Assembly: GCA_965203175.1 (NCBI GenBank)
Contig: OZ241867.1
Span: 6,304,001 to 6,368,000 of the forward strand
Direction: 5' to 3'
DNA length: 64,000 nt
From: Candidatus Latescibacterota bacterium
GTDB lineage: Bacteria > Latescibacterota > UBA2968 > UBA8231
A program made the position numbers and the translations under genes. Below, piece after piece: positions 1 to 24,296 of the stretch (positions are counted from its first letter, which is position 1; each line of letters begins with the position of its first letter). The notes beneath the pieces are model-generated. The model was not told the origin of the DNA and searched no databases. It worked only from the letters and a program-made list of their open reading frames with translations.

Positions 1-1472
1 CCTTCGTCGCCGGGCGCTTGGGCCACCTGCTGCAGTTCGGGCACCCGCTCGATGGCCTTGTCGAGGGTAATTTTCAGTTCGGTCGGCACCTGCTTGGCGA
101 TGCGGTCCACCTCGCCAAAGGGCATCCCCAAAACCCGCCCGACGTCGCGCACCACCGCTTTAGCCCCCAAAGTTCCAAACGTGATGACCTGTGAGACATT
201 GTCCTTGCCGTACTTATCCACTACATAGCGCAGCACCTCGTCGCGCCGGGTATCGTCAAAATCAATGTCGATATCGGGCGGCTCAATGCGCTCGGGATTG
301 AGAAAGCGCTCGAAGATCAGGTCGTACTTGATGGGATCTATATTGGTAATGCCGAGGCAATACGAAGCCAAGCAGCCGGCGGCCGAGCCGCGCCCCGGCC
401 CCACGGAAATGCCCTGATTACGGGCGTGGTTGACAAGGTCCCAGACGATGAGGAAGTAGCCGGAAAAATCCTGACTGGTGATGATGCTTAGCTCGTAGTC
501 GAGCCGCTCCTGCACGGCCGGATCGACGGTGCCGTAGCGCCGCTCCAAACCCTCCCGCGCCAGCTGCGTCAGATAGTCGTCGCTGGAAGCGTAGCCAGAC
601 GGGATCGGAAAATCCGGCATATAGGTTTTCCCGAACTCGAGCTCGACGTTGCACTTGTCGGCAATTTCGAGGGTCCGCTCCAGCGCATCGGGCAAATCCG
701 CAAATAGCGTTTGCATCTCTGCGGGACTCTTCATGTAGAGTCCGTCGGGATAGCACAGGCGATTCTTCTCGTCAACCGTCTTGTTGGTCTGAATGCAAAT
801 CAGGGCGTCGTGGGCGTCGTGGTCGGTGGCGCGGAGAAAGTGGAAATCGTTGGTGGCCACCAGCGGCACTCCCAGCTTGCGGTGCAGCTTGAGCAGGCCG
901 TCGTTCACCTTGGCTTCGGGGTCGATGTCGTGGCGCTGGATTTCCAAGTAGTAGTCGTCGCCGAAGAGGTCCATAAACTCGCGGGCGACCTTTTCGGCTG
1001 CGGCTAGCCCTTCGCGCTGGATCAGGTGCGGAATCTCGCCGCCTATGCAGGCCGACATGCAGATTAGGCCCTCGGCGTGTTCGCGCAAAAGCTCCTTATC
1101 GATGCGGGGATTGTAGTAGTAGCCTTCGAGATAGCCCTTGGAGACGAGCTTAGTCAGATTGCGATAGCCGGTGGCGTCTTTGGCCAGCAAAACCAGGTGG
1201 TTGGAGGCGTGCGTTAGGCCGCGGGCGGCTTGGCGCGAGTGGCGACTATCAATCGCCACATAAACTTCGCAGCCGATGATGGGCTTAATGCCAGCGTCTT
1301 GGCAGGCCCTGTAGTGCTCAATGACACCGAAGAGGCTGCCGTGATCTGTGATAGCCAAGGCAGGCATGCCCTGCTCGGCCGCCAACTCGGCCATCTCGCC
1401 GATCCGACATGCTCCGTCGAGCAGGCTGTATTCGCTGTGACCGTGTAAATGGACGAAATCAGCCGAAGCCAT
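1..1472 (-). CDS. dnaE: DNA polymerase III alpha subunit (5' part, runs off window start)
   Basis: Hand translation from ATG 1472: MASADFVHLHGHSEYSLLDG, PHP motifs TDHG and ATNDFH, GPGRGSAAG, FERFLNPERIEPPDIDIDF; SD GGAGGT upstream. Absent from the ORF track because no stop lies in the window. Confidence 0.97.
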   Translation of the reverse strand, partial: MASADFVHLHGHSEYSLLDGACRIGEMAELAAEQGMPALAITDHGSLFGVIEHYRACQDAGIKPIIGCEVYVAIDSRHSRQAARGLTHASNHLVLLAKDATGYRNLTKLVSKGYLEGYYYNPRIDKELLREHAEGLICMSACIGGEIPHLIQREGLAAAEKVAREFMDLFGDDYYLEIQRHDIDPEAKVNDGLLKLHRKLGVPLVATNDFHFLRATDHDAHDALICIQTNKTVDEKNRLCYPDGLYMKSPAEMQTLFADLPDALERTLEIADKCNVELEFGKTYMPDFPIPSGYASSDDYLTQLAREGLERRYGTVDPAVQERLDYELSIITSQDFSGYFLIVWDLVNHARNQGISVGPGRGSAAGCLASYCLGITNIDPIKYDLIFERFLNPERIEPPDIDIDFDDTRRDEVLRYVVDKYGKDNVSQVITFGTLGAKAVVRDVGRVLGMPFGEVDRIAKQVPTELKITLDKAIERVPELQQVAQAPGDE

Positions 1473-2075: not shown

Positions 2076-2160
2076 TGGTGCCGAAGCGGGGATTCGAACC
2101 CCGACGCCCGAAGGCACTGCCCCCTCAAGACAGCGTGTCTACCAATTTCACCACTTCGGC
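2076..2160 (-). tRNA. tRNA-Leu(GAG)
   Basis: GCCGAAGTGGTGAAATTGGTAGACACGCTGTCTT-GAG-GGGGCAG...GGTTCGAATCCCCGCTTCGGCACCA; long variable arm, encoded CCA; classical position after secG. Confidence 0.97.
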
Positions 2161-9511: not shown

Positions 9512-9588
9512 GGCGGCGTAGCTCAGTTGGTTAGAGCAGTGGAATCATAATCCATGGGTCGGGGGTTCGAGTCCCTTCGCCGCTACCA
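9512..9588 (+). tRNA. tRNA-Met(CAT), elongator type
   Basis: GGCGGCGTAGCTCAGTTGGTTAGAGCA-GTGGA-ATCATAA-TCCAT..GGTTCGAGTCC..CGCCGCTACCA; paired 1-72 and no GGG/CCC anticodon stem argue against initiator; Ile2 not strictly excluded. Confidence 0.92.
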
Positions 9589-11003: not shown

Positions 11004-12578
11004 GTGATCGACGAACTGGCACAGACATACGCGCACTATGTAGCCTTGCGGCGCGAACTCTCGCTGTGGGTCGAGCAGAGCATTCGCCGCGACGGGCCGG
11101 ACCAAAACCAAGGCGGCGAGGACGAGGCTAATTTCGCGCTGGCCTTCTTTCCGCATTATCTGATCAGCGGTGACGAGCGGGTCGCGGTGCGGTTCCGCTC
11201 GCTGGCCAACGACCTCAAGGCCTGGGTTAGAGCCGAGTGCCTGCACGGGTACGAGGCCGAGGCCGAGGCCCACCACGGCACCGAGCCTTTTTTGTTGTTT
11301 CTCCCCCGCTATCTGGGACTCTTTCCCAACGACAGAGAAGCCGCCGCCCTGCTCGATGACGTAGCGCACCACATCGGCAACTGGGTCGAGGGGGTGCCCG
11401 CTTGGTACGACTGGACGCGCGATGTCTTTTTGAGCTACTGGATCGGCACGCGGACCGTCGGTGGGGCGCACGGCGCTCGCGAGTTGGCCGAGCACTTCCG
11501 CTTCTTGCACATTGCGCTGGCCGCTTGGCGCGTCACGGGCGAGGCGCGCTACCGCGACTGGGCGCTGCGCTATGGGCGCAAGCGGGCCGAGCGGTTGCTT
11601 GCGGCGGACGGACGGATGCCCGTGTTGTGGAATCTGGACGGGCGTGGATTGCAGCCGGAGGATTTTCAGACCCGCGCAGAGCAAAAGATGGCCGGCAACA
11701 ACCACCACATTGCCGACGACCCGCTCGCTGGTATCGAAAATCTGCTGGCATCGGGCGCGGTTTACGCGCTGGGCGATCTCTTTTTGCTGGAGGGCGACGA
11801 TATCTTTCGCCGCGCGGCAAAGAGAATCGTCGAGCCGCTAATCGGCCAATTGCTCGATCCCTACGCCGACCCGGCCGCGGCCGCGCTCTCCTACTATCGC
11901 CGGACCTTCGCCGATTCTTCGCTGGACGACGCGATGTGCGCGGTGCTGGCGCGACAACCCGCCGAGTCGGAAGCACCATGGGCGATGGTCTTTCCCCAAG
12001 AGCGGAAGCGTCGCGAGCCGGGGGTGGGCAAACGCAGCGACATGATCTACTGGGGCCATTGGGCGGAAGATGGCTCGGTGCAGCCCTCGCGCGAGCCGAG
12101 CACCGCGGCATTGGCGCTGGGGTATCAATTGACGGGCGAATGGACCATGGCCCGGCGGGCGCTGGGGGCGGCAGCGGCCAAATTCGCAATGGCCCGGCGG
12201 GTGTTGCGCGGCGGGCGCGAGCACGCCGATATGGGCGGGGCGATTTGCTCGGTGGCTGCGGGGCACGGGCGCAATTGGGGCTGCGGGGCGGTGACGGGTT
12301 GCTACGGGCCGCTGTTGATGGGCACGCGCGAAATACAGGGCGCGGTGGTGCCGCTGGTCGAGTGGGCCGAAGGCCATTTGCCCGAGCAGATCCTAGCGCT
12401 CTTGCAACCGCCGGTTGGTGGGCCGGGCACAGTGGTGTTTTACAATAAGGGCGAAGAGCAGCAAGCGCTGGAGTGGCGCATGGCGGGGGCGGCCGATTGG
12501 CAACGCATTGAGCTGGCTCCGAGCGAGGTGCGGGAATACCCACTGGAGACAAAAGGCGTGAGGTGGGGGACACCATGA
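11004..12578 (+). CDS. Hypothetical protein, possible alpha/alpha-toroid carbohydrate-active enzyme
   Basis: 524-aa ORF with repeated 'A(W/Y)xxTGExxY'-type helical turns; no family recognised with certainty. Confidence 0.6.
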   Translation: MIDELAQTYAHYVALRRELSLWVEQSIRRDGPDQNQGGEDEANFALAFFPHYLISGDERVAVRFRSLANDLKAWVRAECLHGYEAEAEAHHGTEPFLLFLPRYLGLFPNDREAAALLDDVAHHIGNWVEGVPAWYDWTRDVFLSYWIGTRTVGGAHGARELAEHFRFLHIALAAWRVTGEARYRDWALRYGRKRAERLLAADGRMPVLWNLDGRGLQPEDFQTRAEQKMAGNNHHIADDPLAGIENLLASGAVYALGDLFLLEGDDIFRRAAKRIVEPLIGQLLDPYADPAAAALSYYRRTFADSSLDDAMCAVLARQPAESEAPWAMVFPQERKRREPGVGKRSDMIYWGHWAEDGSVQPSREPSTAALALGYQLTGEWTMARRALGAAAAKFAMARRVLRGGREHADMGGAICSVAAGHGRNWGCGAVTGCYGPLLMGTREIQGAVVPLVEWAEGHLPEQILALLQPPVGGPGTVVFYNKGEEQQALEWRMAGAADWQRIELAPSEVREYPLETKGVRWGTP

Positions 12579-15500
12579 CCCGACGCGATACTGTGTGGAT
12601 TCTTTCCTTCCTGATCTCAGGCGCTCTCGGTCTTGTCTGTTATGTCCAGTTCTTTGACCGGGCCTTTCCCGTTGCTTCACTTAACTTTCGCGTAGACCGC
12701 GAACAGGCTTATCAGGCTGCCGAAGCATATCTCCACCGCCTCGGCTACGACCTCACCGAATACGAGAGCGCTCAAGTCTTCTCCCATGCCAGCCTGCCTC
12801 AGATCTTCCTCGAACGCACCTTGGGCTTGGCCGAGGCCAACCGCCTCGTGCGGGAGTGGGTCTCGGTATGGTATTGGAACATTCGCTATTTCAAACCACT
12901 GCAGAAGGAAGAACTCCGCGTCCGCATTGATCCCGGCGGGCGCATCGTAGGGTTTACCCACAGCATCCTCGAGTCCGACGAAGGCACCAGCCTCTCAGAA
13001 GAGGATGCCCGGCACATCGCCGAGGCCTTCCTCGCCGATGTTCAGGGTTTTTCACTCGACGCCTACGAACCCATTGAGGCCTCCAGCATCGACCGCCCCA
13101 AGCGGAGGGACCACACCTTCACCTACCGCAAGAGAGACTTCGTCGTCGGGGATGATGGACACTACCGCCTGTACGTCACAGTCCAAGGGGACCGGGTGGG
13201 TAGCTTCTCCGAATACCTCAAGATCCCCGAGACCTTCTCGCGCGACTACCGCGAGATCCGCACTCGCGCTAGTCTGCTCGCCAAGGTCGCCAGAGGATTT
13301 ACCCTCGCCCTGACCATTGCCATGATCGTCGTCCTAGTGCGCAAGTATCGCCAGCGCACACTCACATGGCGCGTCGCCGTATTCATCGGCATCCTCGTGG
13401 GAGCCGTCTCCTTGCTCGGATCCATCAATGGCTATCCGCTCAGTCTGTTCGGATACGACACCATGCAGTCCTATGTCTCCTTCATTCTCAACTTCATCTT
13501 CACTGGTCTCCTCAGCGCCGCTGTTATGGCCCTCATCGTCGCCGTGTGCGGCGCGGCAGGCGGCACCATCGCGCAGGACGTAAGAGACTGGAGCAACCCC
13601 TTAGAGCGGGTTTCCCTGCGGCACTGGCGGTCGGCGAGCTTTGCACGCGTCACCCTTGTCGGTTATGGCCTAGCATTTGCCCACTTGGGTTACGTCACCC
13701 TCTTCTACATTCTGGGCAACGACTACCTCGGGGTCTGGTCGCCTGCCGCCATGACCCAATACAGCAATGCCTACAGCACGTACCTGCCTTGGATATATCC
13801 CCTCCTGACGGGGCTCGTGGCGGCCACCATGGAGGAGTTCCTCTTCCGGCTGGTGGCCATCTCCCTCCTCCTTCGCTGGTTTAAGAGAAGTTGGTTGGCC
13901 CTTCTCGTTTCCGCTGTGGTGTGGGCCTTCCTTCACGCCGACTATCCGCAGGAACCGATCTACATCCGGGGCTTGGAACTGACTATCGTGGGAATCCTCT
14001 TCGGCCTAGTCTTCCTGCGCTTCGGTGTCTGGGCGACCATCATCTCCCACTACGTGTACAACTGCTTTCTCGGCGTCTATCCTATGGTGCAGTCCGACAG
14101 CCTCTACTTCAAGGTTTCGGGCATCCTCGCTGTCGCCATCATCTCCATCCCGGCCCTTCCCGCCATCTGGAGCGCCGTCCGCGGCCGCTACGAGGACGCG
14201 CCCCTTGAACCCACTCCGGAAGCACCAAAGACCGCACCCCCGCCATCTGCCCTTCCCGCGGAGACGGAGACGCCTGAACCTCCAATCGAACGCAAGAGGC
14301 CCTCTGACTACCTCATCTCCGGCAAGGGTCTCCTCGTCTTTAGCATCCTCGGTCTGTTGGGCTGGTCTGCATACTTTGCTTTCGAACCGCGGAATTTCGC
14401 TGAATACGCACGCGAGAAGGTCCCCACCCGCGTGCAGGCTATCGAGATTGCCGAAGGGATTCGGGGACAGCTCGGACTCGACCTCGAAGGTTATCGCCGC
14501 ACCACCTCATTCTCGAGCAGTCTCGGTTCCAACCACTTTACACACCTGCTGCGAAACGCCGATGTGGCGCGGGCGGACACGCTCGCGGCGGAGCACACGG
14601 GCTCGTGGCGCTGGAGTGTGCGATGGTTCAAGCCCCTCGAAAAAGAGGAACTCACCATTAGCGTCGACGGCCACGGCGACCTCTCCTACATCTCGCATGC
14701 CGTGCCCGAGGGTCAAGAGGGTGCAGAACTCACCATTGAAGAGGCGCAGGAAGTGGCCAAGGCCTTCCTCCGCCAACACCTGAACCGGGATGTAGCTGAT
14801 ACGACGCTCTACAAGCGTCTCAATGCGCGGTCCTTCAAGCGCGAGAACCGGATGGACCACAGCTTTGTGTGGGAACGCATGGACGTCAAGGTGGAAGAGG
14901 GCGAGTTTCGCATTTTCGCCTCTGTACAGGGCGACCGGATCGGCTATGCGTACAAGGCCTACAAGGCACCCGAGGAATTTTTGCGCAAACTAGGAGAGAA
15001 GACTGCAAAGAGCACCATTGTCTCCACCCTCCCTACCATCGCCGTCATTGTCACCCTCGTCCTAGCCGTCATTCACCTACTACGCGCCTACCGAAACGGG
15101 CTGGTCAAGTGGCGATTGCCCATCGGCATCGGCATCCTCTATGGCCTGTGTTTCCTACTCGAGGATCTCAACGAACTGCCCACATTCTACCGAGGTTATG
15201 ACACCAGTGAGGTCATGGGTACCTTCCTCCTTGGCGAGCTTGTCAGTGTCGTTCAGGGCCTCGCTGGTGCGGTCATCCTCGCCCTGTTGGTCTGCGCCCT
15301 CGGAGATACGCTATACCGCGTGGAGCGTCCCGGAGAGATGCGCATCTCCGACTGGATCGATGTGCTCCGCCTGAAGGCGGGCAGCGCGGCACTGTGGTGG
15401 CAGGTCGTCTTTCTGGTGGCGTGCTATTCCGGTATCAGAAGAGGCACCGGCGTTCTCTCCGCTCACGTACATCTTACCTATCTCACAGACTACCTTTTCG

Positions 15501-15970
15501 CAGGCGGCGGTGTGCCCGCCAACATCAACACCTATCTGCCCGCGCTCGGTGAACTCATCGACGAATTCAGCGGTATGCTCATAGCCCCCATTGGGATCCT
15601 CGGCCTTCTCTTTATCTGGGGGCGAATCCTGGGCAGGACAAGCCTGACTATTCTCGGCGTCTTCGTCGTTCTCATCTTCCAATCCGTCGTCTCGCCAGCC
15701 AAGGACTTCTACCACGCAGGCGTACTCCTCGCGACGAGCACTCCATTCTGGCTGATCTCGGCTTTCCTCTTTCTGAGGTATATCCGCTTCAACCTGCTCT
15801 TCTACGTTGTATTGGGCTGGAGTTCCATCCTGTTCGAGGGCATTTGGTACCTCAAATTCGATGCCCACGTATGGAAGATCAACGGCATCCTGATGATCCT
15901 CTTCGGCCTCATCCCCGTCGTGTTCGCCGTCATCTTTTGGCTCAGGGAACGAGGATCTAACTATCCATGA
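12575..15970 (+). CDS. Large membrane protein with CPBP (CAAX/Abi) intramembrane protease core and duplicated extracytoplasmic module
   Basis: EEFLFR, WAFLH, SHYVYN motifs; ATG 12575 overlaps upstream TGA (ATGA); two homologous halves. Confidence 0.85.
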   Translation: MTRRDTVWILSFLISGALGLVCYVQFFDRAFPVASLNFRVDREQAYQAAEAYLHRLGYDLTEYESAQVFSHASLPQIFLERTLGLAEANRLVREWVSVWYWNIRYFKPLQKEELRVRIDPGGRIVGFTHSILESDEGTSLSEEDARHIAEAFLADVQGFSLDAYEPIEASSIDRPKRRDHTFTYRKRDFVVGDDGHYRLYVTVQGDRVGSFSEYLKIPETFSRDYREIRTRASLLAKVARGFTLALTIAMIVVLVRKYRQRTLTWRVAVFIGILVGAVSLLGSINGYPLSLFGYDTMQSYVSFILNFIFTGLLSAAVMALIVAVCGAAGGTIAQDVRDWSNPLERVSLRHWRSASFARVTLVGYGLAFAHLGYVTLFYILGNDYLGVWSPAAMTQYSNAYSTYLPWIYPLLTGLVAATMEEFLFRLVAISLLLRWFKRSWLALLVSAVVWAFLHADYPQEPIYIRGLELTIVGILFGLVFLRFGVWATIISHYVYNCFLGVYPMVQSDSLYFKVSGILAVAIISIPALPAIWSAVRGRYEDAPLEPTPEAPKTAPPPSALPAETETPEPPIERKRPSDYLISGKGLLVFSILGLLGWSAYFAFEPRNFAEYAREKVPTRVQAIEIAEGIRGQLGLDLEGYRRTTSFSSSLGSNHFTHLLRNADVARADTLAAEHTGSWRWSVRWFKPLEKEELTISVDGHGDLSYISHAVPEGQEGAELTIEEAQEVAKAFLRQHLNRDVADTTLYKRLNARSFKRENRMDHSFVWERMDVKVEEGEFRIFASVQGDRIGYAYKAYKAPEEFLRKLGEKTAKSTIVSTLPTIAVIVTLVLAVIHLLRAYRNGLVKWRLPIGIGILYGLCFLLEDLNELPTFYRGYDTSEVMGTFLLGELVSVVQGLAGAVILALLVCALGDTLYRVERPGEMRISDWIDVLRLKAGSAALWWQVVFLVACYSGIRRGTGVLSAHVHLTYLTDYLFAGGGVPANINTYLPALGELIDEFSGMLIAPIGILGLLFIWGRILGRTSLTILGVFVVLIFQSVVSPAKDFYHAGVLLATSTPFWLISAFLFLRYIRFNLLFYVVLGWSSILFEGIWYLKFDAHVWKINGILMILFGLIPVVFAVIFWLRERGSNYP

Positions 15971-16758
15971 GCCTGTACACTTATCTGCTAAAGCTCCAAC
16001 TGCTCAACGCGCTGGCCTACCGCTTCGAGTATCTGTCGTCCATTGGGCGAAATTTGTTTTTCCTCCTTGGCTCCGTCTTCCTCTGGCGCACCGCGTATCG
16101 CGGGATTGACCAAGTCGCCGGTGTCACCGAGGCGCAGATGGTCACCTACGCCGTCGTCGCCGTGCTGATGAATGCATGCTTCACGGTCAGCATCGACAAC
16201 GAGCTCTTCGGCAAGATCCGCGCAGGTGAGATCGCGCTCGATCTAATCCGGCCGATGAACCTCGTCTGGTACTGGATGACCGAAGATGTGGGGCGTTCAC
16301 TGGCGGCAGTCACGCAGTTCGCCCTGCCCCTGCTGGCCATCTCGCTCCTCTTTGTGGCTCCCCCACTGCCAGCGGGAGTGGGAGCGTGGTTGCTGTTTCT
16401 GCCGAGCTGTGCGCTGGGCTTCCTGCTGCTGTGGCTGCTTAGCGTCCTGGTGGGCATGACGGCCTTTTGGGTCACCGATTTGTGGGATGTGAGCACAGTG
16501 AAAAACAGCCTCGTCTTCGCCCTGTCGGGACGATTGGTGCCAATGTGGCTGTTCCCCGACCTCATCGCCGATGCATCGCGGTGGCTGCCCTTCCAGTATA
16601 TGTTCCAGGCACCGCTGGAGATCTACATCGGCCGCGTCTCTGCCACAGAGGTCGTCCACATCCTCTCCGTGCAGGCCATCTGGGTCGCGGTGTTCGCCCT
16701 GCTCACAAGTCTCGTCTGGACGCGCGCCCAGCGGCGGGTCTTCGTACAGGGAGGATAG
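15967..16758 (+). CDS. ABC-2 family exporter permease
   Basis: IRAGEIALDLIRP, LSG.LVP..FP, LPFQY..P motifs; hydrophobic. Confidence 0.88.
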   Translation: MSLYTYLLKLQLLNALAYRFEYLSSIGRNLFFLLGSVFLWRTAYRGIDQVAGVTEAQMVTYAVVAVLMNACFTVSIDNELFGKIRAGEIALDLIRPMNLVWYWMTEDVGRSLAAVTQFALPLLAISLLFVAPPLPAGVGAWLLFLPSCALGFLLLWLLSVLVGMTAFWVTDLWDVSTVKNSLVFALSGRLVPMWLFPDLIADASRWLPFQYMFQAPLEIYIGRVSATEVVHILSVQAIWVAVFALLTSLVWTRAQRRVFVQGG

Positions 16759-16765
16759 GTAGCCC

Positions 16766-17581
16766 GTGATAGCCGACGTGCGTCATCACTTGTCCGTTGC
16801 AGCCCTGTACGGCCGCCTGTCGGCGCAGCGGGCGTTGGAGTATCCCTTCTCGCTGCTGAGCATCAGCCTTGGACTAGGCTTCAACTACGTCTGGATTGGC
16901 GTCGCCCTGAAGGTGCTGGTCGACCAGTTCCAGCCGCTATCGGGATGGACTTTCCCACAGCTCGCTTTCCTGTATGGGCTGAGCCTGATGAGCCGTGGCG
17001 TCATGTCCATCCTGTCATTTCAGTCGCGGCTGATCGATCGCTTTGTCACGCGCGGCGAGTTCGACTTGATGCTTCTCAGACCCCTGGAGATCACCTTCCA
17101 CTTTTCCTGCCACCGAATCAATGTGGTCGGCCTCGTGCATCTGGGCATCGGCACGGGCTACTTCCTCTATGGGGCTCGGCTGGCTGGCTTTGTCTGGACG
17201 CCGCTGCACGTCGCCGAGGTACTCCTCGTCATTGCCGGCGGGACCCTGATCTACTGGTCCTACCTCACCCTCATCAGCTCCATCGCGTTCTGGACCATGC
17301 GCAGCCAGCCCCTCGTGGACGCCAGCATAGAACTGATGGCGCGCGGCACGTTCTACCCGCTGACCGTGTACCCGTGGCATCTGCAGGCGCTGCTGACCTT
17401 TGTGCTGCCCCTCGGCTTCATCGGGTTCTACCCCGCCTGCGACTTCCTCGGCCAGAGCGCGAACACTTCTCTGCCCCTCGATGTAGCCCTGTGGACTCCC
17501 GCTGTGGGTGCCGCGATGCTCGTCCTGGCGCTGGCCGTCTTTGCCGCCGGCCTTCGCCGCTACGAAAGTGCGGGGTCGTAG
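16766..17581 (+). CDS. ABC-2 family exporter permease (DUF990-type)
   Basis: GEFDLMLLRP, YPL.VYP, C-terminal RYESAGS. Confidence 0.88.
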   Translation: MIADVRHHLSVAALYGRLSAQRALEYPFSLLSISLGLGFNYVWIGVALKVLVDQFQPLSGWTFPQLAFLYGLSLMSRGVMSILSFQSRLIDRFVTRGEFDLMLLRPLEITFHFSCHRINVVGLVHLGIGTGYFLYGARLAGFVWTPLHVAEVLLVIAGGTLIYWSYLTLISSIAFWTMRSQPLVDASIELMARGTFYPLTVYPWHLQALLTFVLPLGFIGFYPACDFLGQSANTSLPLDVALWTPAVGAAMLVLALAVFAAGLRRYESAGS

Positions 17582-17584
17582 GCC

Positions 17585-18583
17585 ATGGCACATATAGAGC
17601 TAGAGAGGGTTTGCAAGACCTTCCGCGTGACCCGGAAGCAAAAGGGGCTGGCCGGTGCGGTGAAGGGCTTGTTCCGGCCCGACCGACGCGAAGTGCACGC
17701 GGTGCGCGACGTGAGCTTTGCGATTGAGCCAGGCGAGCTAGTCGGATTCATCGGCCCCAACGGCGCGGGGAAGTCGACGACGATCAAGATGCTCTCCGGC
17801 ATCCTCTATCCCACGTCTGGGCGCGTCTCCGTCGTCGGCCTCTCACCCCAGAGGCAGCGGCGGTCGGTCGTCCAGCGCATTGGTGCCGTGTTCGGCCAGC
17901 GCAGCCAGCTAAACTGGGACCTTCGCCTAGGCGAGTCCTACGAACTGTTCAAACGGATCTACCGCATTGCCGACGACGACTTCGAGCGGAGCCTAGCCGA
18001 GCTCTGCGAGGTCCTCGGCATCGAGGACCTTCTCGACACACCGGTGCGTCAGATGTCCCTGGGGCAACGCATGCGCGGGGAGCTAGCCGGTGCCATGCTG
18101 CACGAGCCAGATATCCTATTTCTCGACGAGCCTACGATGGGCATGGACATCGAAGTGAAAGCGTCGATCCGGGCCTTCATCCGAGACATCAACCTGCGCC
18201 GGCGCACCACCGTACTGCTCACCACGCACGACCTAGACGACGTGGAAGAGCTCTGCGAGCGACTCATCATCATCAACCAAGGACGCATCATCGAAGACGG
18301 GCCTCTGGCGGCGCTCATCGACTCGATCACCCCGCACCGCTATCTGATCGTCGAGTGCGATTCCGGTGCCGGAGAGCCGCTGGCTGGATTCGCCCATGCC
18401 CACGCAGAAATCCTCGAACGGCGAGACAGCGTCGTCCGCATCCGCTTTGCGCGGAGCCACGTGTCGGCGTCGGCGCTGATCTCGGAACTGTCAGCCCGCT
18501 ACCCGGTGCGCGACGTGTCCGTCCAAGAGCCCGACATCGAGGACGTGATTCGCACGGTCTACGGGCGCGACGTAGGAGGTTAG
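17585..18583 (+). CDS. ABC exporter ATP-binding protein
   Basis: GPNGAGKST, MSLGQRMR, FLDEPT, TTHD. Confidence 0.95.
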   Translation: MAHIELERVCKTFRVTRKQKGLAGAVKGLFRPDRREVHAVRDVSFAIEPGELVGFIGPNGAGKSTTIKMLSGILYPTSGRVSVVGLSPQRQRRSVVQRIGAVFGQRSQLNWDLRLGESYELFKRIYRIADDDFERSLAELCEVLGIEDLLDTPVRQMSLGQRMRGELAGAMLHEPDILFLDEPTMGMDIEVKASIRAFIRDINLRRRTTVLLTTHDLDDVEELCERLIIINQGRIIEDGPLAALIDSITPHRYLIVECDSGAGEPLAGFAHAHAEILERRDSVVRIRFARSHVSASALISELSARYPVRDVSVQEPDIEDVIRTVYGRDVGG

Positions 18584-18596
18584 ACGCAGTCAGCCG

Positions 18597-18639
18597 GTTC
18601 CAGCTGATCGCCAGCGATTCGGCGACCGGGCGCTGGAAC
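18597..18639. other. Imperfect hairpin after the ABC operon
   Basis: GTTCCAGC..TCGCC/GGCGA..GCTGGAAC; no U-tract. Confidence 0.45.
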
Positions 18640-18661
18640 GTCTGGTAGTTTGAGCATTCCC

Positions 18662-18691
18662 TTGACGCTGTGGCCTTTGCGCAACTATCTT
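18662..18691 (+). promoter_or_regulatory. sigma70-type promoter
   Basis: TTGACG-18 bp-TATCTT. Confidence 0.6.
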
Positions 18692-18696
18692 TTCCG

Positions 18697-18820
18697 CAAG
18701 CGCCCCAGGAAGGCCTTCCCGTCCGCGGTAAGGGTCCCAGATCCACCCCTTCATTCCACAATTTCGACCTTCTTTCGCCTGACTTCGCGGATTACAGGCA
18801 CGAAAACGAAAGAGGGTACT
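18697..18820 (+). ncRNA. Candidate structured cis-regulatory 5' leader
   Basis: Helix GTCCGCGG(18721-28)/TCGCGGAT(18785-92) plus GCCT/AGGC; alternative 11-bp helix 18767-77/18807-17 covering the SD. Confidence 0.5.
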
Positions 18821-19519
18821 ATGTCTGCAAGCCTTCCTCCCAGTCCCTACCTGCAGCAAATTAGAAAACTCGCCAAGGAGTTGCTTCACCAGCACAGAGC
18901 GGGTGACCGCGAAGCTGCCGAGCGCATTCGCAGACACCATCCCCGCTATCTTCAAGCCAACTCCAACGAGGAGGGGATATTATCGCTTCAGGACGCCCAG
19001 TTGGTCATCGCTCGCGAATTCGGACAGAGAAACTGGTCGCGGCTGGTGGCGGTTGTCGAATTGATGCGACAGGTTCACCGAGCAATCATAAATACCGAAT
19101 GCATCCACGTAGTCGCCAGAGATGCCAGTCAATTGCAGGCTTTCAAAGCGCTCCTGCGACCTCACTACAACGCTGACCAGCTGAGAGTTCTGCGCCCATT
19201 TGCGCGCGGCGGCGAGGCAAAGTCCATGTTGTCCAGCGCCATTAGTCTCGTAGTGAGCGCGCCGATCCTGTTGTCAGAGTATCGAACCCTTGGACTGGCA
19301 CATCTGATGGAGCATCAGCACAAGCCGAAAGCTCCATTTCAGGTTGAATCGCATCTGGCGCGAACCCACGCCATTCTTCCAAGATCGGTTCATGGAAGAA
19401 GATCCGTTCTGCTCGGCGTTAAGGCTCGCGTCGACGAGTCTGATTTCAAGGAGGTCTTCGAGCTGAGTCCCCGGGAATTGGCCCAGCTCTACGGATCGAC
19501 GACCGTGGTGAACCTCTAA
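18821..19519 (+). CDS. Hypothetical protein with N-terminal 'LPxxPxLxQxRKxAKELL...LxDAQLVIARExGxxxW' module
   Basis: ATG 18821 after GAGGG; module recalled from N-termini of ankyrin-repeat and other fusion proteins; C-terminal part unrecognised. Confidence 0.7.
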   Translation: MSASLPPSPYLQQIRKLAKELLHQHRAGDREAAERIRRHHPRYLQANSNEEGILSLQDAQLVIAREFGQRNWSRLVAVVELMRQVHRAIINTECIHVVARDASQLQAFKALLRPHYNADQLRVLRPFARGGEAKSMLSSAISLVVSAPILLSEYRTLGLAHLMEHQHKPKAPFQVESHLARTHAILPRSVHGRRSVLLGVKARVDESDFKEVFELSPRELAQLYGSTTVVNL

Positions 19520-19926
19520 TGGGCAGGCGTGCGGAGGCGATTGAGGGCACGTGATAGCGCCGCTTGAGCGCGCGCTACGTCGATCTCCTCTTGTCCGGCG
19601 CGCGCCTGAGCGAGGCGTTCCTCAGCGCGCTGGCGCGCAGACTCGGCCCGCTCAACGTCGATTTCCTCGATCCGTTCAGCCGTCTCAGCTAGCACCGAAA
19701 CCTGCTCGCGCCCGACCTCGACAAAACCGCCGCTGATGGCCATTTGGACCTCACTGCTGCCCTCCTCGACAAAGCGCAACCGCCCTATCTGCAACGAGGT
19801 TAAAAGCGGTACGTGTCCAGCGAGGACGCCGAAACTCCCCTCGCTACCGGGCGCTTGCAGACTGGCTACCTGACCCGAGTAGGCCACCCGCTCTGGTGTG
19901 ACAACCTCTAAGGCGAAGGCGGGCAT
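19516..19926 (-). CDS. atpC: ATP synthase F1 epsilon
   Basis: LEVVTPE, GVLAGHVP, ISGGFVEV; operon position. Confidence 0.96.
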   Translation of the reverse strand: MPAFALEVVTPERVAYSGQVASLQAPGSEGSFGVLAGHVPLLTSLQIGRLRFVEEGSSEVQMAISGGFVEVGREQVSVLAETAERIEEIDVERAESARQRAEERLAQARAGQEEIDVARAQAALSRALNRLRTPAH

Positions 19927-19929
19927 GGA

Positions 19930-21354
<1,425 letters not shown>

Positions 21355-22209
21355 CTATTGAGCCACAGCATTGGCACCGCCGATAATGTCCATCAATTCG
21401 AGGGTTATCGAGGCCTGCCGCTCCTTGTTCATTTCGCGGGTCAGATCCTCAATCATGTCTCTGGCGTTCTTAGTGGCGTTGTCCATCGCCATCATCTGGG
21501 CGGCGAAAAAGCCCACATTTGACTCCAGCAGAGCGCGCCATACCTGGAAGTTGATCTGACGCTCAACCAAAGTGCCCAACAGGACCTCGGGCGATGGCTC
21601 GAAAGCGTACTTGGCACTCTCACCTGTTTCCTCCTCGGGCGCGATGGGCAGGAGCTGGCGGACGGTCGGCACTTGGGAAGTAACAGAGGAGTATTCGCTA
21701 TAGCAGAGCAACACCCGGTCGGTCTGGCCAGCGACAAAGCGACTCGTTAGATCCTGAGCTATATCCGCGGCGCGAACTAACTCGAGCTGGTTGAACACAT
21801 CGGCGTGATGGCGGGAGATTGAGTAGCCGCGATGGCTGAAGAAGTCCCAGCCCTTGTTCCCGATGGTGATCAACTCAGGTTGGGCGTCCCCATACTCGTC
21901 CAACTCGTCCTGAACCCGACGGCACATGTTGGTGTTAAAGGCACCGCAGAGGCCGCGATCGGAGGTTATGACCACCAGCGCAACGCGCTGGACCGGGCGA
22001 ACCGCAAAGAGCGGCTGCTCGTAGACATCGACGCTCTGGTGCAGCGCTTTCAGTACTTGGTCCAGTCGCTGGGCGTACGGCCGGGCAGCTAAAATCGCCG
22101 CCTGAGCGCGGCGCATCTTGGCCGCGGCCACCATCTGCATGGCGTTGGTGACGCGCTGGATATTGGTGATGCTAGCGACGCGCGTCCTGAGTTCGCGAAG
22201 GGTAGCCAC
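21355..22209 (-). CDS. atpG: ATP synthase F1 gamma
   Basis: AMQMVAAAK, SDRGLCGAFN, RQASITLEL. Confidence 0.98.
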   Translation of the reverse strand: MATLRELRTRVASITNIQRVTNAMQMVAAAKMRRAQAAILAARPYAQRLDQVLKALHQSVDVYEQPLFAVRPVQRVALVVITSDRGLCGAFNTNMCRRVQDELDEYGDAQPELITIGNKGWDFFSHRGYSISRHHADVFNQLELVRAADIAQDLTSRFVAGQTDRVLLCYSEYSSVTSQVPTVRQLLPIAPEEETGESAKYAFEPSPEVLLGTLVERQINFQVWRALLESNVGFFAAQMMAMDNATKNARDMIEDLTREMNKERQASITLELMDIIGGANAVAQ

Positions 22210-22212
22210 CGC

Positions 22213-23745
<1,533 letters not shown>

Positions 23746-23759
23746 AGATCCTCCTGTGA

Positions 23760-24296
23760 CTAACCGGCCAGACGCGCTTGTAGGCGCTCTAGATAGGTGT
23801 TCACGCTGCCGTCGAATACGGTGTCGCCGACGCGGACGATCGCGCCGCCCCGCAAACTGGCATCGACTTGGACATCCAAGCGCACGGTGCGACCGCTGCG
23901 GTGTTCTAAGCGCTCCCGCAGACGCTGGCACTGCTCCCCACTCAACGCCACGGCCGAGCGCACCTCAGCAGTGATTATGCCCTCGCGCTCGGCAACCTGA
24001 TCGAGAAAACTTTCGAGTGCTGCGCCGATAATAGAAGCGCGGCCCCTGACAGCCATGAGCCGGAGAAAATTCAGGGTCAGCACCTCGACCTTGCCGCTGA
24101 AGAGCTCCCGCAGGACATTGCCTTGCGCTTGGCTATCGGCTAGAGGATTGGCCAAAAACTCGGCCAACTCGCCGGACTGGCGCACGGTCTCCAAAAGCCG
24201 CTCGACATCGCGCTGCACCGCCGCAGTCGCGCCTGTTTCATCGGCGGCCTCCAGCAGCGTAGCCGCGTAGCGTCGCACTACTTCGGGTGCGTTCAT
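23760..24296 (-). CDS. atpH: ATP synthase F1 delta
   Basis: [23 protein letters not shown]. Confidence 0.95.

Follow-up and report, generated by a model that had tools for sequence, protein, structure and literature searches.

The 64,000-nt stretch of DNA analysed here (hereafter the window; positions 6,304,001 to 6,368,000 of contig OZ241867.1, assembly GCA_965203175.1, from a Candidatus Latescibacterota bacterium) sits within a single 6.58-Mb contig and carries on its forward strand a gene for a protein of 232 amino acids (aa) that is preceded by a structured leader RNA of about 125 bases. The leader is predicted to be the entire 5' untranslated region of this gene; upstream of it lies a sigma-70-type promoter, located where the original prediction for this locus had placed it. 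As judged by comparison with its relatives, the leader has one conserved fold, consisting of the helices P1, P2 and P3, the last stacked on P4, plus two pseudoknots, PK1 and PK2, and in this fold the Shine-Dalgarno sequence (SD) of the gene is buried. The protein itself begins with a helical module that recurs in other proteins encoded downstream of leaders of the same family (Table 1).

Table 1. Features of the leader and of the gene that follows it, in window coordinates.
Feature	Position	Strand	Details
Sigma-70-type promoter	18662..18691	+	TTGACG 18662-67, 18-nt spacer, TATCTT 18686-91
Full match to covariance model R1	18693..18823	+	92.6 bits, E 2e-19; G000:C1:6322693-6322823; leader through start codon
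P1, 5' hairpin	18702..18714	+	GCC 18702-04 / GGC 18712-14 only; loop holds AGG
PK1	18707..18750	+	P1-loop AGG (~18707-09) with CCU right after P2 (~18748-50)
PK2, 5' strand GUCCGCGG	18721..18728	+	pairs with 18785-92
P2 hairpin	18732..18744	+	GGGUC / GAUCC
Variable G-poor linker, PK1 to anti-SD	18751..18766	+	length and sequence differ among copies
P3, anti-SD strand ACCUUCUUUCG	18767..18777	+	11 bp with 18807-17
P4 hairpin	18778..18799	+	GCCUG 18778-82 / CAGGC 18795-99
PK2, 3' strand UCGCGGAU, inside P4 loop	18785..18792	+	pairs with 18721-28
P3, SD strand CGAAAGAGGGU	18807..18817	+	SD core GAGGG 18812-16
Gene, 232 aa	18821..19519	+	ATG 18821-23; open reading frame list and translation
Shared N-terminal module, five helices	18821-19075 (residues 1 to ~85)	+	module alignment; AlphaFold pLDDT 88
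C-terminal alpha/beta domain, no assigned family	19096-19516 (aa 93-232)	+	AlphaFold model

In the leader copies of this genome, the conserved blocks follow one another in the order GCC..UCCGCGG-N-AAGGG..CCCACC....CCUUCUUUC.GCCUG..CGCGGA..CAGGC...GAAAGAGGG..AUG. When 33 copies were aligned without fitting the alignment to a structure, RNAalifold predicted P2, P3 and P4 from it. The covariance model R1 has 131 positions and 23 pairs and does not include PK1 and PK2; alignment A3 consists of 101 matches aligned to R1, and 80 further matches were fetched, including some from four other families of the phylum. Over these 101 sequences, to which the pair statistics given below refer, the full structure of 35 pairs is paired in 94.9% of cells, compared to 86.5% in shuffles, and 29 of the 35 pairs change on both sides where 16.2 are expected. 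On four of the five measures, the observed values are not matched by any of 500 shuffles, and slid controls are paired in 39-53% of cells. A search for conserved, covarying structure upstream of homologues, which had been proposed as a check on the original prediction, thus finds such structure. As R1 contained P1 to P4, the counts for these four helices lean towards the model, while the statistics for PK1 and PK2 are free of model fitting; taken alone, the two pseudoknots are paired in 94.3% of cells (86.8% in shuffles, 41-52% when slid), with 8 of their 11 pairs changing on both sides.

Among the hairpins, P2 is paired in 99.3% of cells and all four of its pairs change on both sides (GGGU/ACCC, GGGC/GCCC, GGGA/UCCC, GGCC/GGCC). 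P1 covaries as well, appearing in relatives as GCUC/GAGC, GCCUC/GAGGC, GGCGU/ACGCC and GGCGC/GCGCC, and P4, paired in 98.2% of cells, occurs as GCUUG/CAAGC, GCCCG/CGGGC and GCCGG/CCGGC and is lengthened to GGUAAUGCCUG/CAGGCAUUACC in the relative L050. PK1 (columns 17-21 with 69-73) is paired in 88.4% of cells; four of its five pairs change on both sides between AU, GC and CG, giving variants such as AAGG:CCUU, AGGG:CCCU, CCGG:CCGG, CGGG:CCCG, GGGAGA:UCUCCC and GCAGA:UCUGU. PK2 (columns 43-48 with 158-163) is paired in 98.7% of cells and four of its six pairs change on both sides (CCCGC:GCGGG, UUCGC:GCGAA, UCUGC:GCAGA, CCUGC:GCAGG), with a flanking G-C going to A-U. It is the same helix of 8 bp, GTCCGCGG (18721-28) with TCGCGGAT (18785-92), that had been drawn from the window copy by itself, and its conservation and covariation bear that drawing out. 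RNAalifold also proposes a GG/CC extension of P2 (columns 49-50 with 69-70), which is paired in 93.5% of cells and mismatched wherever GG changes; we prefer PK1 because in 97.5% of cells these two C residues can pair with the P1 loop, in a helix that runs on into strongly covarying pairs. The P2 extension and PK1 may also exchange with one another or join in a base triple.

The helix that takes up the SD is P3: an anti-SD strand lying upstream pairs with it immediately ahead of the start codon, and this codon follows the end of the model in all full matches, so that the family has the layout of an SD-sequestering leader. P3 is paired in 94.7% of cells, and 10 of its 11 pairs change on both sides (for instance AACUUC:GGAGUU, UUCUUC:GGAGAU and ACCCCU:GGGGGU). 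Together with P4 it corresponds to the second of two folds, A and B, that had been proposed for the leader, in which ACCTTCTTTCG (18767-77) pairs with CGAAAGAGGGT (18807-17) and CCTG with CAGG (within 18778-82 and 18795-99); both parts of this fold B are conserved and covarying, and the suggestion that it buries the SD is borne out by P3, which was predicted from the unfitted alignment and covaries. The 3' end of the genome's own 16S ribosomal RNA (rRNA) reads GAUCACCUCCUUUCU, and the leader anti-SD, ACCUUCUUUC, is a copy of this tail with one C-to-U change that matches the SD variant of the gene. The SD forms a duplex of -16.9 kcal/mol with the leader anti-SD, compared to -10.3 kcal/mol with the genome's own 16S tail; since the former pairing is the stronger, the ribosome-binding site should be closed by default. 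For P3 and P4 together, the folding energy in the window copy is -17.5 kcal/mol. A single-sequence fold also stacks the anti-SD:SD helix on the GCCUG/CAGGC hairpin; its minimum free energy, however, does not improve on that of shuffles (z +0.69), so that the support for the fold comes from comparison and not from thermodynamics. Sequestration of the SD is an established way of repressing translation, and with the SD buried in a conserved fold, the leader is most likely a cis-acting repressor of translation.

In the window copy, P1 is weak, with three pairs, as is PK1 (~3 pairs, duplex estimate -6.3 kcal/mol), while PK2 is strong (8 pairs, estimate -12.9 kcal/mol). We speculate that the G-poor linker between PK1 and the anti-SD may be a ribosome standby site. 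Near-relative contigs (95-99% identity) have substitutions at 18679, 18696, 18742, 18820 and 18848, and the T>C change at 18742 converts a G.U pair of P2 to G-C. Several other readings of the leader were tried and dropped. A pairing of AAGG with the anti-SD shows no covariation; the GGG that might resemble CsrA-type GGA sites is paired in P2 and does not lie in a loop; and an RNA-level constraint on the Leu-Pro codons does not fit the wobble bases, which vary. At 18721-18730 the leader reads CCGCGGUAA, which we take to be identical to the universally conserved core of the 16S rRNA 530 loop; the U position is variable within the RNA family, and we therefore regard the match as chance and not as mimicry of that loop.

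From the position of the promoter, the transcript is predicted to start at about 18697-18700, a few bases 5' of P1. Of 117 distinct upstream regions, taken from several phyla, 45 have a TTGAC-16..19-TAnnnT site (at least 9/12 matching) at a constant offset, compared to 1.4% of shuffles, its -10 box ending 25-32 nt before UCCGCGG. Because of this fixed offset, the element probably begins at the very 5' end of the transcript. There is no terminator-like site within 18300-19800. Two contigs from RNA-library runs, one from each run and both of low depth (2-3), lie over the leader, at 18649-18870 and 18748-18968.

No riboswitch had been recognised in the leader at the outset, and the search of Rfam 15 agrees: at the gathering threshold the whole window yields only two transfer RNAs (tRNAs), and for 18600-18900 at E up to 10 there is only a chance long non-coding RNA row on the other strand with 16 bits (gathering score 55). 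R1 finds four copies in the source genome, all of them leaders; an exact search for the leader 5' core returns the three strong leader copies and one unrelated place, the degenerate fourth copy being without an exact match. The element far exceeds chance expectation. Across the order, a strict block pattern occurs at 45 places in 23 of 76 genomes (none for the reversed-pattern control), and R1 detects the element in 48 of the 76 genomes and 14 of the 18 genera, single genomes having as many as 16 copies. Of 151 genomes sampled from the phylum, 58 carry it, distributed over the families as f1 38/63, f2 4/30, f3 13/19, f7 1/1 and f8 1/5, with 0/32 in nine other families.

The family extends beyond the Latescibacterota. 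A pattern scan of one genome per species gave at least 119 stretches, in other phyla too. Among the matches listed, Acidobacteriota form the majority, beside Gemmatimonadota, Candidatus Latescibacterota, Planctomycetota (Tepidisphaeraceae, Isosphaerales), Actinomycetota (Amycolatopsis, Actinopolymorpha), Armatimonadota/Chthonomonadales, Chloroflexota (Tepidiformaceae) and 'Deltaproteobacteria' metagenome-assembled genomes. The element is present in at least eight bacterial phyla, with hundreds of copies. In a sample of Acidobacteriota it is patchy and mostly single-copy (13 of 151 genomes, the centre genome included). Viral contigs gave one match among 2.9 million, and a plasmid search with one Amycolatopsis copy gave none; neither search shows a sign of a phage or plasmid as vehicle.

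What connects these copies is the protein module at the start of the gene. In the source genome, the first 82 residues of the 232-aa protein have three clear paralogues, two of which carry the same leader blocks upstream, and all 38 distinct pattern copies precede an open reading frame (ORF) beginning with an M-x-x-x-L-P-x-x-P...LKKQAK module (six of these ORFs are shortened by stops). The suggestion in the original prediction that similar leaders stand before other genes with this N-terminal module is hence confirmed by the paralogues, the order and other phyla. A module profile was built from the first set of copies and run on the ORFs at the RNA matches: of 100 full matches, 85 are followed by the module from the start codon of the model onwards, and 15 are not. 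Four of these 15, including the fourth copy of the source genome, have it in a later gene of the same unit; another four have it at the start but in another frame or at an offset; and the remaining seven give nothing at E up to 0.01, although several start with a recognisable but broken module. At loci in other phyla, the module is directly downstream in 76 of 80 cases, 42-91 nt after the anti-SD, with one at 178 nt.

The numbers of modules and RNAs also run in parallel. In five Latescibacterota genomes, module and RNA matches number 4/4, 5/6, 18/16, 5/4 and 10/10, and elsewhere the counts are 1/1 in Amycolatopsis, 3/2 in Gemmatimonas, 4/2 in an Acidobacteriota genome (three loci), 1/1 in Chthonomonadaceae and 10/7 in Actinopolymorpha; in nearly all pairs of these ten genomes the RNA is directly upstream of the module. 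Of the 76 genomes of the order, 47 have both, one has the RNA only (weak hits), two have the module only and 26 have neither. Within the source genus the joint presence and absence is clear: the RNA-positive and the module-positive sets are identical, at 17 of 30 genomes. RNA and module therefore appear to be gained, lost, duplicated and transferred together, also at loci where the remainder of the protein is different or a further gene intervenes.

A few arrangements at these loci deserve separate description. The fourth copy of the source genome (loci L055 and L002; G000:C1:896439-897878, minus strand) scores 66.1 bits and has a degenerate core, UCCGCCAAAAGGG; its leader, which lies outside the window, stands before a 339-aa ORF that does not contain the module, and next comes a 142-aa gene encoding hardly anything besides the module. 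The layout of a leader, a gap of about 1 kb and a stand-alone module recurs, as judged by matching coordinates, in eight or more further genomes of the genus. Tandem leader-plus-module genes, each with its own leader and 1.2-2.6 kb apart, occur at G069:C73:90761-92666, G038:C1:1611303-1612667 and G064:C8:19683-22467.

The module comes in a short form of ~45-50 aa and a long form of ~85 aa, and is laid out as an LP.RP.LEQLKKQAK..L helix, an optional helical insert and an L.DAQ..IARE.GF.SW..L..HV helix pair. It is basic (median isoelectric point 9.8, net charge +3), with two invariant K/R positions in helix 1. AlphaFold predicts five helices for it with a confidence (predicted local distance difference test, pLDDT) of 88, and the same value for the whole 232-aa protein with its alpha/beta C-terminal domain. 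Nothing significant was found for the module in Pfam, NCBIfam or PADLOC; for the 232-aa protein, Pfam gave no match at E up to 1 and NCBIfam no more than a chance row. Weak matches to Pfam Glyoxalase_8 (PF20066), in 15 of 29 module sequences with a best E of 0.002, fall short of the gathering score of that family and suggest at most a distant likeness over the 'AQ..IARE.GF..W' helix pair. A sequence search of the PDB with the module returned one 89-aa chain, JUBO2 (E 0.01), whose sequence looks designed and for which no explaining paper was found; among solved folds there was nothing significant (best VIA-align Z 4.1, Foldseek E above 1), and the ESM Atlas gave only unnamed clusters scoring below 0.85. 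The C-terminal domain bears a weak, non-significant likeness to the RecA-like motor domains of SecA, XPD and Snf2 (Foldseek E 0.006-0.09), and no P-loop motif is evident in its sequence (aa 93-232).

The domains that follow the module in other proteins are ankyrin repeats, FliG_C with a MotA-cytoplasmic-loop-like part, and FliM-like, PcfJ-like, methyltransferase and sigma-54-type AAA+ domains, as well as regions without a family. The idea that RNA and N-terminal module form a portable unit thus gains ground, as the pair is found before differing C-terminal domains. Soluble proteins with the module, FliG_C and a MotA/PomA-loop-like part are encoded at L029, L031 and L048, and module proteins with a FliM-like part at L028, L047 and L051; at L119, L142 and L146 the leader precedes a small FliG/MgtE_N-like ORF, behind which lie two module copies. 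The FliG/MotA/FliM-type module proteins look like parts of the flagellar rotor-stator interface that are reused outside a flagellar locus.

In the window, the leader gene forms a unit of its own, flanked by a transporter operon and ATP synthase genes. On its 5' side (12563-18583, plus strand) lie a 1135-aa multi-pass membrane ORF, two membrane ORFs of ~265 aa and a 332-aa ORF with a Walker A motif (GPNGAGKST), a set that, from the ORF list, resembles an ABC-type exporter operon; on its 3' side (19516-23931, minus strand) lie ORFs that by the same list are the epsilon, beta, gamma and alpha subunits of ATP synthase. The two tRNA genes are at 2079-2160 (minus strand) and 9512-9585 (plus strand), with 50.8 and 66.3 bits for Rfam RF00005. 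Public sequencing runs that contain at least half of 18500-19600 include several labelled as sponge metagenome, and two metatranscriptome runs contain a small share of this region.

Taken as a mechanism, we would expect the transcript to start a few bases after the promoter and to fold into one compact, doubly pseudoknotted structure. In it P4 would stack on the 11-bp P3, formed between the internal copy of the 16S anti-SD and the extended SD of the gene, and the ribosome-binding site would be closed. The basic N-terminal module of ~80 aa would then bind the folded leader and keep it closed, so that free module protein would limit the translation of its own mRNA and of every other mRNA with the same leader. 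Promoter, leader and module would together make a portable, self-limiting expression cassette that has been joined to many C-terminal domains. We infer from the co-occurrence that the module may be the cognate RNA-binding domain. That the effector is the module protein itself, acting by autogenous feedback, is the explanation we tentatively favour, since RNA and module seem to be gained, lost, duplicated and transferred together and the module is basic. Less likely, in our view, is the wider picture of a mobile 'expression governor', in which gene transfer and the shuffling of domains would have carried promoter, double-pseudoknot leader and a module that is a new RNA-binding domain targeting only its own leaders into at least eight phyla, placing up to 18 proteins per genome with unrelated effector domains in one feedback loop.

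Several points weigh against autogenous control. Related genomes are not independent, so that the co-occurrence counts overstate their statistical weight, and there are units whose leader is followed first by a gene that does not carry the module. Searches with the module gave no significant hit among known RNA-binding folds or families. Nor is there a second RNA site in the genome for the leader to mimic, all four R1 hits being leaders, although a distant mimic would be missed by this search. P3 and P4 are stable by themselves, so that the contribution of a repressor is uncertain; a factor that acts on the 5' domain might have an opening instead of a closing effect on the site, and an activator fits equally well. 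The RNA-library cover of the leader (depth 2-3) includes the promoter, one of the contigs spanning it; DNA carry-over is possible, and we claim neither transcription nor a start site from it. Finally, such strong nucleotide conservation across about eight phyla, at paired positions too, is more typical of riboswitch aptamers than of leaders that bind a protein.

This last point leads to the main rival, a translational riboswitch, in which P1, PK1, P2 and PK2, together with the conserved unpaired G-G-N-A-A and A, would form a pocket for a small molecule or ion; the ligand would fix PK2 and control the opening of P3/P4, and the module proteins would be a ligand-responsive regulon. The very strong conservation includes the unpaired junction bases, the compact doubly pseudoknotted fold includes the SD as in SAM-II, preQ1-II and similar riboswitches, up to 16 copies per genome would be in keeping with c-di-GMP or T-box elements, and a module that has no recognisable RNA-binding fold also fits. 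However, the downstream genes have a protein domain in common, but no pathway, transporter or enzyme from which a ligand could be guessed; the joint gain and loss of RNA and module is not required of a ligand sensor; P3 and P4 are stable without ligand; and no conserved alternative fold was found. We therefore consider a riboswitch somewhat unlikely. A further rival is the two-state switch of the original prediction. There, fold A, made of an outer GCCU/AGGC helix and the 8-bp helix, would free the SD and compete with fold B. Both sets of pairs can be drawn in the window copy, and the 8-bp helix and fold B are each real, but across 100 sequences the outer helix reaches just 55-64% of paired cells, on a par with the slid controls, and does not covary; it is also disfavoured because its GCC is the 3' arm of the covarying P1. 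As PK2 lies inside the P4 loop, the 8-bp helix is sterically and topologically compatible with fold B, and the two can form together as a pseudoknot. With all supported helices mutually compatible and no conserved competing structure, of the expression-platform kind, in the alignment, the supposed competition between the folds is unsupported, and we find such a switch hardly credible.

The default-closed fold can also be read as waiting for some other trans-acting factor. This could be a separate RNA-binding protein, a helicase or a small RNA; by opening or closing the SD helix it would place all module genes in one regulon. A closed fold needs opening, the same leader stands on up to 16-18 genes of one genome, and the module lacks a known RNA-binding fold. 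Single copies in distant phyla, as in Amycolatopsis, would on the other hand require the factor to travel along or to be universal; the gene in the window has no conserved adjacent partner, and no candidate was found, none having been looked for. We regard this as quite unlikely. If there were no specific effector at all, the structured 5' end might protect the mRNA and set a low, fixed, perhaps temperature-dependent rate of translation for proteins that are harmful in excess. The single conserved fold with no conserved alternative, the stable SD helix and the hairpin at the very 5' end of the predicted transcript would suit such a constitutive element, but two covarying pseudoknots and ~40 near-invariant bases far exceed what SD masking or 5' capping needs, and the strict tie to one module across phyla would be left unexplained, which makes this very improbable in our estimation.

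Autogenous control through a pseudoknotted leader has well-known precedents in the E. coli rpsO (S15) and rpmI-rplT (L20) leaders, which regulate ribosomal proteins, have a narrow distribution and mimic an rRNA site. The present element would share with them a pseudoknotted leader around the ribosome-binding site, upstream of the gene of the proposed binder, and translational control, binding to the leader being only a proposal here; it differs in that there is no second genomic site, that one leader serves many paralogues with different C-terminal domains, and that it occurs in about eight phyla. Translational riboswitches with the SD inside the aptamer, such as SAM-II/SAM-V, preQ1-II/III and NAD+-II, resemble it in their conserved pseudoknotted fold that includes the SD, directly before the start codon and without a terminator. 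In contrast to these, our leader has no Rfam match, its genes share a domain and not a metabolic theme, and its SD helix is long and stable alone. In type III toxin-antitoxin systems, RNAs such as ToxI consist of tandem repeats, with a terminator before the toxin gene, and are processed by the toxin. A pseudoknotted RNA just upstream of the gene for its presumed binder is common to both, whereas here there is a single unit per gene with no repeat and no terminator-like site, and the RNA contains the SD of its own gene.

Another parallel is the DUF1646 motif, an orphan cis-regulatory RNA that takes its name from the domain encoded downstream and was later reported to be a Na+ riboswitch (PMC9337991). 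Both are RNA motifs from comparative analysis that are tied to one uncharacterised protein family; in our case the tie is to the N-terminal module of otherwise unrelated proteins, and RNA and module appear to be gained and lost together. Acido-1 and Acido-Lenti-1 (RF01686, RF01687) are structured RNAs from Acidobacteria that are listed as not cis-regulatory (PMC2864571). Acidobacteria as carriers are what they have in common with our element, for which 18600-18900 shows no match to either at E up to 10. A search by a few keywords of the open PubMed Central and bioRxiv text found no description of the leader RNA, and an earlier listing in a motif catalogue is possible. We regard the element as a new family of SD-sequestering leader, absent from Rfam 15, the unusual feature of which is its one-to-one coupling to a portable N-terminal module in at least eight phyla.

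Structured leaders that are conserved across many phyla are rare, and most of them have proved to be riboswitches or key autoregulatory sites. The family described here has ~35 covarying pairs and two pseudoknots and reaches from soil Acidobacteria and Actinomycetota to Latescibacterota. If the module binds the leader, a new RNA-binding domain would be defined together with its RNA partner; if it does not, the leader remains a strong candidate for a new riboswitch class. Either outcome would be the first property open to testing for a promiscuous domain found ahead of ankyrin, FliG/MotA-like, FliM-like, PcfJ, methyltransferase and AAA+ domains. The 'expression governor', if true, would be a new class of RNA-protein regulatory module, and one that may be usable as a portable autoregulatory part.

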